From assembly GCA_014913405.1 (NCBI GenBank), contig GCA_014913405.1_3931.1: DNA of 64,000 nucleotides. One strand, 5' to 3'. A program made the position numbers and the translations under genes. The DNA is from a phage. The stretch's first letter is position 1. Each line of letters opens with the position of its first letter. A model generated the notes under the pieces. That model made no database searches, was not told where the DNA came from, and saw nothing but the letters and a program-made list of their open reading frames with translations. Of the stretch, positions 24,743-24,822 are shown one piece after another.

Positions 24743-24822
24743 ATGGGACGATGTTAAGACTCTAAGGCATGAGCAACGGCCTCCAAAACCGTTTCAAAGG
24801 GGTTCAACTCCTCCGTCCCATG
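24743..24822 (+). tRNA. tRNA-Trp(CCA)-like with expanded D-region (80 nt)
   Basis: Perfect acceptor; anticodon loop CTCCAAA; about 7 extra nt in D-arm. Confidence 0.45.

Follow-up and report, generated by a model that had tools for sequence, protein, structure and literature searches.

In canonical tRNAs the acceptor and D stems are joined by two nucleotides (U8 and N9), a connector that is near-universal. Natural tRNAs with an (8/4) architecture are active in E. coli translation, and some of them originate from phage tRNA clusters (PMC5389517). For bacterial tRNA-Trp, the identity set consists of C34, C35 and A36 together with G73 and A1-U72 (PMC9976931). A survey from 2026 described 267 bacterial tRNA-Trp(CCA) genes with a stem that is unpinned at the bottom, and tRNA-Trp with a 4-bp stem was argued to decode UGG (PMC13092985). 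For Felix-O1-like phages, the genome paper of Felix O1 lists 22 tRNAs, Trp not among them, and gives tRNA-Tyr as 'Pseudo (Tyr)' (PMC3185647). The paper on phage Sf14 reports 26 tRNAs for 19 amino acids by tRNAscan-SE 2.0, and leaves the absence of Trp uncommented (PMC12482277).

Here we analyze a tRNA-like element in a stretch of phage DNA of 64,000 nucleotides (GenBank assembly GCA_014913405.1, contig GCA_014913405.1_3931.1), referred to below as the window. What is new in this element, judging from comparative sequence analysis, is a tRNA, probably a tRNA-Trp, that combines a probable 8/4 branch with a novel conserved linker.

Results

A tRNA cluster in which only Trp is missing

The window derives from a Felixounavirus; a stretch of 801 nt has 99.8% identity with Salmonella phage SeKF_63, and the identity with Escherichia phage dune is 99.4%. 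ARAGORN identifies 26 co-oriented tRNA genes (22884-28095), which cover 19 amino acids with only Trp missing. The Rfam tRNA model (RF00005, gathering score 29 bits) recovers 24 of these at the gathering threshold; tRNA-Met (23137-23213) and tRNA-Tyr (23443-23530) are called by ARAGORN and fall below the Rfam score. In a permissive scan, the best match of the latter was the tRNA-Sec model (29.6 bits). A CCA end is encoded in 25 of the 26 tRNAs, the only one without it being tRNA-Ser(TGA) at 24839-24928.

Within this cluster we identified a single-copy, 83-nt tRNA-like candidate gene (24743-24825, plus strand) with the anticodon CCA, a discriminator G (24822) and a genome-encoded CCA (24823-24825), the latter placing its end 3 nt beyond that given in the first-pass annotation. 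It lies just downstream of tRNA-Arg(TCT) in the window, as it does in Sf14 and Arno18. ARAGORN and the Rfam tRNA model report nothing at 24743-24822, and RF00005 does not match the candidate at gathering or at E ≤ 10. The best Rfam match is a weak one to tRNA-Sec (RF01852; 23 bits and E = 0.017 on 241 nt, with a gathering score of 47 bits), due to the long acceptor and anticodon helices. As Sf14 carries the expanded element and lacks only Trp according to tRNAscan-SE 2.0 (PMC12482277), the element was missed there; the annotation of the Arno18 cluster likewise lacks Trp only. A permissive Rfam scan, our custom model R1 and a scan for T-arm, acceptor and CCA features found no other hidden tRNAs of the same type in the window cluster.

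Several features of the surrounding sequence were considered. A TATAAT directly upstream was rejected as a promoter, as Suspvirus reads TGTAGT or TGTATT instead, without conservation of the -11 A, and the start would fall inside the tRNA. In AYO145A, the "promoter" annotation corresponds to a match of the consensus on the minus strand. An overlapping open reading frame as the source of the conservation was dismissed as well, the longest one, on the opposite strand, having 36 aa. In the interval that separates tRNA-Arg from the candidate, a hairpin (CATGTT-TTCCAG-AACATG) comes after the motif GGAGGTGGTCTGTATCTC (24647-24681). The motif occurs once in the window, and the same 18-mer context is found in another gap of the tRNA cluster of phage phiEa21-4 (L270, approximately 24413-24430), with a different hairpin after it. 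It may signal processing or represent a small RNA.

Structure and covariation

The proposed parts of the element are listed in Table 1.

Table 1. Proposed features of the candidate gene, in window coordinates.
Feature	Position	Strand	Remarks
Acceptor stem, 5' strand AUGGGACG, nt 1-8	24743..24750	+	A1 with U72-equivalent; G8 with C24814 in the 8/4 model
Single-stranded linker AUGUUAAGA, nt 9-17	24751..24759	+	9 nt; extra sequence of the element
D arm: 3-bp stem CUC/GAG (24760-24762 with 24771-24773), 8-nt loop UAAGGCAU	24760..24773	+	Loop holds a G18G19-like GG
Anticodon arm: 5-bp stem AACGG/CCGUU (24775-24779 with 24789-24793)	24775..24793	+	
Anticodon loop C-CUCCAAA-A	24780-24788	+	CCA at 24783-24785; U33 and A37 equivalents on either side
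Variable region UCAAA, 5 nt	24794..24798	+	Invariant columns in 14 variants
T arm: 4-bp stem GGGG/CCUC (one G.U), 7-nt loop UUCAACU	24799..24813	+	T-Psi-C type loop
Acceptor stem, 3' strand CGUCCCAU	24814..24821	+	
Discriminator G73, then encoded CCA end	24822..24825	+	GCCA invariant in all variants

The perfect 7-bp acceptor stem noted in the first-pass annotation (ATGGGAC, 24743-24749, with GTCCCAT, 24815-24821) is present, as are its anticodon loop CTCCAAA and the unpaired C24780.A24788. Its count of 26 nt between these two stems (24750-24775) is also correct. It had interpreted this distance as a Trp-like tRNA with an expanded D-region. The surplus nucleotides do lie 5' of the anticodon arm; the D-loop itself is normal, and a single unpaired C separates the D stem from the anticodon stem. 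Minimum free energy (MFE) folding, RNAalifold, the alignment of variants and the ARAGORN deletions described below all contradict the suggested insertion in the D-loop, and locate the surplus in the linker between the acceptor and D stems.

To assess the fold we used a structural alignment of 14 distinct variants of the element, in which 20 pairs were scored. Standard pairs occupy 99.6% of the cells, and 8 of the 20 pairs show double-sided changes; when the 3' partners were slid by 1-3 columns as a control, pairing dropped to 35-52% with zero double-sided changes. The covarying pairs comprise four of the five in the anticodon stem, the middle D-stem pair (U-A to A-U in 6/14 variants), the outer T-stem pair (G-C to U-A in 2/14) and the two outermost acceptor pairs, of which pair 1 varies between AU, GC and GU and pair 2 between UA and CG. 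Atop the anticodon helix, A24775-T24793 forms an extra covarying pair (AU in 7, GC in 5 and GU in 2 variants). The result is a four-helix cloverleaf backed by covariation, with an acceptor and T branch of 12 bp (most likely 8 + 4) and a D stem of just 3 Watson-Crick pairs. RNAalifold independently yields the same structure, and single-sequence MFE folds and the hand model agree. The MFE of -24.1 kcal/mol corresponds to z = -1.39, so that stability alone is unremarkable and not significant.

Across the 14 variants the D-loop GG, the U-CCA-A of the anticodon loop, the UUC and fifth-position A of the T-loop, and the terminal GCCA are invariant or nearly so; the UCCAA core (U33, C34 C35 A36, A37) is strictly invariant. 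The equivalent of 31.39 is C.A or C.C in 14/14 variants, and thus never pairs. Together, conservation and covariation demonstrate that the element is real, conserved and structured beyond chance.

Two versions are longer. Those of Yersinia phage P778 (L001:1499-1584) and Pectobacterium phage Arno18 (L002:1499-1584) measure 86 nt, with 2 additional nt in the D arm and 1 in the 3' acceptor strand, and the latter leaves the acceptor stem with either one bulged nucleotide or a G3.U pair. We also considered a helix within the linker (nt 9-13, AUGUU, with nt 24-28, GGCAU). It shows one-sided changes only, is broken by a G to A change at linker position G11 in phage humlepung, and was judged sterically incompatible with the covarying D stem; it is not the main fold.

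The acceptor/T branch is most likely divided 8/4

An eighth acceptor pair, G24750-C24814, is chosen by both MFE folding and RNAalifold. The 7/5 reading would instead need an invariant A.C as the outer T-stem pair (the equivalent of 49-65). Position 8 is a G in the candidate, whereas it is a T in 22 of the 26 neighboring tRNAs. Based on the folding energy, the G at position 8 and the invariant A.C in the 7/5 reading, the modelled branch is most likely split 8/4 rather than 7/5. Covariation does not prove this, as G8 and its partner C are invariant in all 14 variants. The T-arm that had been called canonical retains its T-loop (TTCAACT, 24803-24809), and its stem is most likely 4 bp, next to an eighth acceptor pair. 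As natural (8/4) tRNAs are active in translation (PMC5389517), a 12-bp branch of this type would be no obstacle to function.

A conserved 9-nt linker hides the candidate gene from ARAGORN

With a linker of 9 nt and a G at position 8, the two-nucleotide U8/N9 connector is absent from the element. The linker AUGUUAAGA is its most conserved part: it is invariant in 13 of the 14 variants, and the only change is the G11A in humlepung. This strict conservation suggests specific tertiary or protein contacts.

The linker also accounts for the failure of ARAGORN. The intact sequence, which served as a control, gives no call, and in silico removal of any 6-nt block of the linker, or of one particular 5-nt block, leads to a call of tRNA-Trp(cca) with exactly the proposed ends. 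A check with tRNA finders, as proposed in the first-pass annotation, thus draws a blank on the intact element, and supports tRNA-Trp after 5-6 linker nucleotides are removed; we conclude that the linker hides the gene.

A 9-nt replacement of the U8/N9 connector was not found in the searchable literature, including a review of non-canonical tRNAs. A pattern scan of viral contigs with the 3' half of the element recovered the same family only, and no relative with a different linker. An initial 14-mer scan of viral contigs returned mostly chance matches, and after filtering just Felixounavirus copies; a metagenome scan with a gapped pattern gave chance matches only.

Conservation in several genera

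A search with the window copy finds the element in 236 phage records (237 with the Arno18 copy as query). Among the carriers, which all have the same expanded form, are Felixounavirus, Suspvirus and Mooglevirus as well as unclassified Ounavirinae of Yersinia and Pectobacterium. In the most distant genomes the match is confined to the tRNA-like core. None of approximately 115 records listed annotates the element as a tRNA: the region is labeled "none", "hypothetical protein" or, by a minus-strand consensus, "promoter". A description of the gene or its sequence was not found in the searchable literature, and no match was obtained when the element was compared by blastn with 5,426 E. coli genomes.

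The copy in the window is 74% and 73% identical to the Yersinia and Pectobacterium copies, respectively. Nine other orthologous bona fide tRNAs show 58-91% identity and the 100 nt of upstream flank approximately 50%. None of the genomes shows further decay of the element, bar one UNVERIFIED record ('Campylobacter phage A132', MG065664.1; L269), which has two unique T-arm changes that may be sequencing errors. This record and GU169904.1 ('Staphylococcus phage SA1') contain Felix-O1-like sequence including the element, and are probably contaminated or mislabeled entries.

Trp identity elements and a canonical relative

The candidate contains the bacterial tRNA-Trp identity set, as CCA and G73 are invariant, and A1-U72 is found in the window and in 10 of the 14 variants. 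In the remaining variants the first acceptor pair is G.U (2) or G-C (2). For comparison, E. coli genomes have a median of 1 tRNA-Trp gene (5,426 genomes).

Erwinia phage phiEa21-4 (Kolesnikvirus, same subfamily) does not carry the expanded element. It has a canonical 76-nt tRNA-Trp between tRNA-Gly and tRNA-Thr, which are 6 nt apart in the window. The two genes have an identical 15-mer in common (CGGCCUCCAAAACCG/CGGCCTCCAAAACCG), which includes the C31.A39 mismatch. As this mismatch also occurs in a tRNA-Trp recognized by ARAGORN, it is a lineage trait rather than damage. We found no intermediates between the canonical and the expanded form, and none of the homologous genomes has a normal-length tRNA-Trp at the position of the element; the only canonical one in the subfamily sits elsewhere, in Kolesnikvirus. 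This complementary distribution of the two forms is the strongest argument for function that the sequences offer.

Other tRNA-like elements in the cluster

A tmRNA-like mRNA-like domain was observed in the tRNA cluster of the window (24293-24523). First comes a strong promoter-like site (TTGACA-17-TATAGT, 24293-24321), then an A-rich stretch and the tag frame GCAAACGACAATGTTTTTCTGGCAGTAGCTTGATAG (24371-24406), which encodes ANDNVFLAVA and two stops. The E. coli tmRNA tag reads ANDENYALAA. A hairpin with compensatory changes follows the tag frame. Felix O1, SUSP2, Sf14, Michonne and others retain the frame, their changes being synonymous; that of phiEa21-4 encodes ANDAQFLAVA, again with two stops. 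ARAGORN calls a permuted tmRNA with the tag ANDNVFLAVA in Mijalis only, with no call in the window or in phiEa21-4. Rfam matches at 24293-24523 are sub-threshold and cover the middle of the model only, and a tRNA-like domain is lacking. A tmRNA survey from 2014 has no Felix-O1-like phage among the phages with ssrA (PMC4131195). The region may represent a two-piece tmRNA, or a derivative of tmRNA that lacks the tRNA-like domain.

An unannotated tRNA-like element of approximately 120 nt is located just after tRNA-Arg(TCT) in SUSP2 (L006:1244-1369), Michonne (L003:1217-1343) and Yersinia phage P778 (L001:1231-1352). It has a 7-bp acceptor stem and a canonical T arm (GTAGG-TTCGACT-CCTAC), and ends on G-CCA in SUSP2 and Michonne; the P778 end differs. 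Two long internal hairpins replace the normal D and anticodon arms, and 9 of 33 predicted pairs covary in the three sequences. The element has no Rfam match and is absent from the window.

In phiEa21-4 (L270, approximately 23877-24045) an element of approximately 170 nt was seen by eye directly upstream of the tmRNA-like tag region. It starts with GGGTGATT and ends with GAGG-TTCGAAT-CCTT-AATCACTC-G-CCA, giving an apparent 8-bp acceptor stem, a 4-bp T stem and G73-CCA that enclose approximately 130 nt. Custom model R1 matches its 3' part weakly (19.2 bits, E = 0.027).

Discussion

A non-canonical tRNA-Trp as the best explanation

We consider it likely, on the comparative evidence, that 24743-24825 encodes a functional but structurally non-canonical tRNA-Trp(CCA) of the Felix-O1-like (Ounavirinae) phages, charged by the host TrpRS. 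Several lines of evidence favor this: Trp is the only amino acid missing from the cluster, the distribution is complementary to that of the canonical gene, the helices covary, the identity elements are in place, removal of linker nucleotides uncovers a tRNA-Trp, and the divergence is tRNA-like. In addition, the CCA is encoded as in the neighbors, G8 fits an eighth pair, the C31.A39 mismatch has a precedent and 8/4 tRNAs are active. Against it speak the replacement of U8/N9 by 9 nt, the 3-bp D stem, the modest z-score, the lack of a match to the Rfam tRNA model, the acceptor bulge in the Yersinia and Pectobacterium variants and the absence of covariation at the eighth pair. Among the three options offered by the first-pass annotation, a functional tRNA is nevertheless the best supported.

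Such a tRNA would share the transcript of the cluster, and its ends would be trimmed by RNase P and 3' processing, like those of its neighbors. Host TrpRS could charge it through G73, C34C35A36 and A1-U72, and EF-Tu would bind the 12-bp branch. By decoding UGG, the tRNA might make phage translation independent of the single-copy tRNA-Trp of the host. The linker might loop out of the tRNA core, or rebuild it by replacing U8/N9 (U8/A14-type contacts).

A linker sequence this strictly conserved would also be in keeping with an element that binds a protein and takes no part in translation. Such a tRNA-like RNA would not decode; it could be a decoy or sponge that captures a tRNA-binding protein or a host nuclease directed at tRNAs, or else a regulatory or processing element of the cluster, with the linker as binding site. 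That this segment is the most conserved of all, in an architecture that escapes every tRNA model, is in line with such a role; moreover, tRNA-targeting defences cut acceptor stems, tRNA-Trp included (retron Eco2, PMC12916289), and a phage RNA that consists of a TLD only has been proposed to titrate SmpB (PMC4131195). We nevertheless think it unlikely, because a decoy would not need an invariant U33-CCA-A37, a G73-CCA end and A1-U72 together, and it leaves unexplained why Trp is exactly the gap in three independent phage tRNA sets and why the expanded element and a canonical tRNA-Trp exclude each other.

If the element is a functional tRNA-Trp, as we prefer, its rebuilt 8/9 and D region and the unpinned 31.39 could serve to insert Trp at UGA, by programmed or global readthrough. 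The candidate is altered in exactly the regions where changes in E. coli tRNA-Trp (A9C and the Hirsh-type G24A, and 4-bp anticodon stems) raise UGA readthrough while CCA is kept (PMC13092985). The readthrough variants tested were, however, unpinned at the top of the stem and not at the bottom (PMC13092985). In addition, TGA ends 19 of 89 long ORFs in the window, and the in-frame extensions beyond it have a mean of 6.2 codons and a maximum of 37, none being long; phiEa21-4, with a tRNA-Trp of canonical length, looks alike (8/58). This normal use of TGA as a stop argues against reassignment of UGA and is still compatible with low-level readthrough, and we regard a role of the element as UGA reader as quite improbable. 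There is a slim chance that, in broader terms, the conserved 9-nt element on an 8/4 scaffold with an unpinned 31.39 does more than supply Trp, be it resistance to or partnering with a host or phage factor, or insertion of Trp at UGA.

Finally, it is hardly credible that the element is a decaying pseudogene (the third option of the first-pass annotation), a former tRNA-Trp disabled by an insertion and stem mismatches: its invisibility to tRNA finders, the 31.39 mismatch, the short D stem, the unremarkable folding energy and, if read as 7/5, the A.C at the 49-65 equivalent could be read as decay, but the same expanded form occurs in approximately 236 records from several genera with compensatory substitutions that keep every helix, the insertion is near-invariant and the most conserved part of all, and the 73-74% identity to distant phages, against 50% for the flank, resembles that of bona fide tRNAs.

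Implications

If the candidate is indeed a tRNA-Trp, Felix-O1-like phages would carry tRNAs for all 20 amino acids, and not for the 19 reported. A complete set would then be present in a classic, heavily used group, namely in Felix O1, in many typing and therapy phages of E. coli, Salmonella, Shigella and Citrobacter, and in the Felixounavirus members of the BASEL collection. Published counts (22-26 tRNAs, "19 amino acids") would miss one gene, as would analyses of codon adaptation that start from these counts. RNase P, TrpRS, EF-Tu and the ribosome would have to tolerate a 7-nt expansion at the acceptor/D junction, where tRNAs vary less than almost anywhere else in their architecture. The small set of natural 8/4 tRNAs would gain a Trp member with a new feature, which may be of interest to tRNA engineers. 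Covariance-model and heuristic finders would systematically miss this class, and other "incomplete" phage tRNA sets may be complete.

Comparison with known tRNAs

The candidate resembles E. coli trpT and the tRNA-Trp of phiEa21-4 in its anticodon CCA, the loop core CUCCAAA, G73, A1-U72, a T-Psi-C-type loop and the GG in the D-loop. It differs from a canonical tRNA-Trp in having a linker of 9 rather than 2 nt, G8 instead of U8, a probable 8/4 instead of 7/5 branch, a D stem of 3 bp and a length of 83 instead of 76 nt, and in being missed by ARAGORN, Rfam and tRNAscan-SE. In the array it follows tRNA-Arg(TCT), whereas the phiEa21-4 gene is found between those for Gly and Thr. From tRNA-Sec (RF01852) it is set apart by its score (23 bits versus 47), by CCA instead of UCA and by the lack of a long variable arm and of a 6-bp D stem; on this model, 2 nt are aligned at the 18-nt variable-arm insert.

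With the tRNA-Trp(CCA) genes that are unpinned at the bottom (PMC13092985) the element shares the anticodon, the unpaired 31-39 and a loop of formally 9 nt. That class is otherwise canonical and detectable by tRNAscan, and the functional part of the survey dealt with other variants; in the candidate, the D-side is rebuilt and compensation comes from a covarying 26-44 pair at the top of the stem. As in the Hirsh-type UGA suppressors (A9C, G24A), a putative tRNA-Trp keeps its CCA and is changed at position 9 and in the D stem. Each suppressor carries a single point mutation in an otherwise canonical tRNA and has been shown to read UGA, whereas the candidate has a 7-nt expansion and no UGA signal in stop usage.

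The (8/4) tRNAs and allo-tRNAs (PMC5389517) also invite comparison. A long single-stranded linker like that of the candidate was not found described for (8/4) tRNAs (PMC5389517). The variable arm of allo-tRNAs is long, and their D arm resembles that of tRNA-Sec in its long stem and tetraloop (PMC5389517), whereas in the candidate the variable loop measures 5 nt and the D stem is short, with a loop of 8 nt. Both have a 12-bp branch, which in the candidate is most likely also split 8 + 4, a lengthened anticodon helix and an occurrence in phage tRNA clusters, and the weak pickup by the tRNA-Sec covariance model is the very route by which allo-tRNAs were discovered (PMC5389517). The known (8/4) species are Ser, His, Cys and Sec (PMC5389517), and the candidate would be a Trp.
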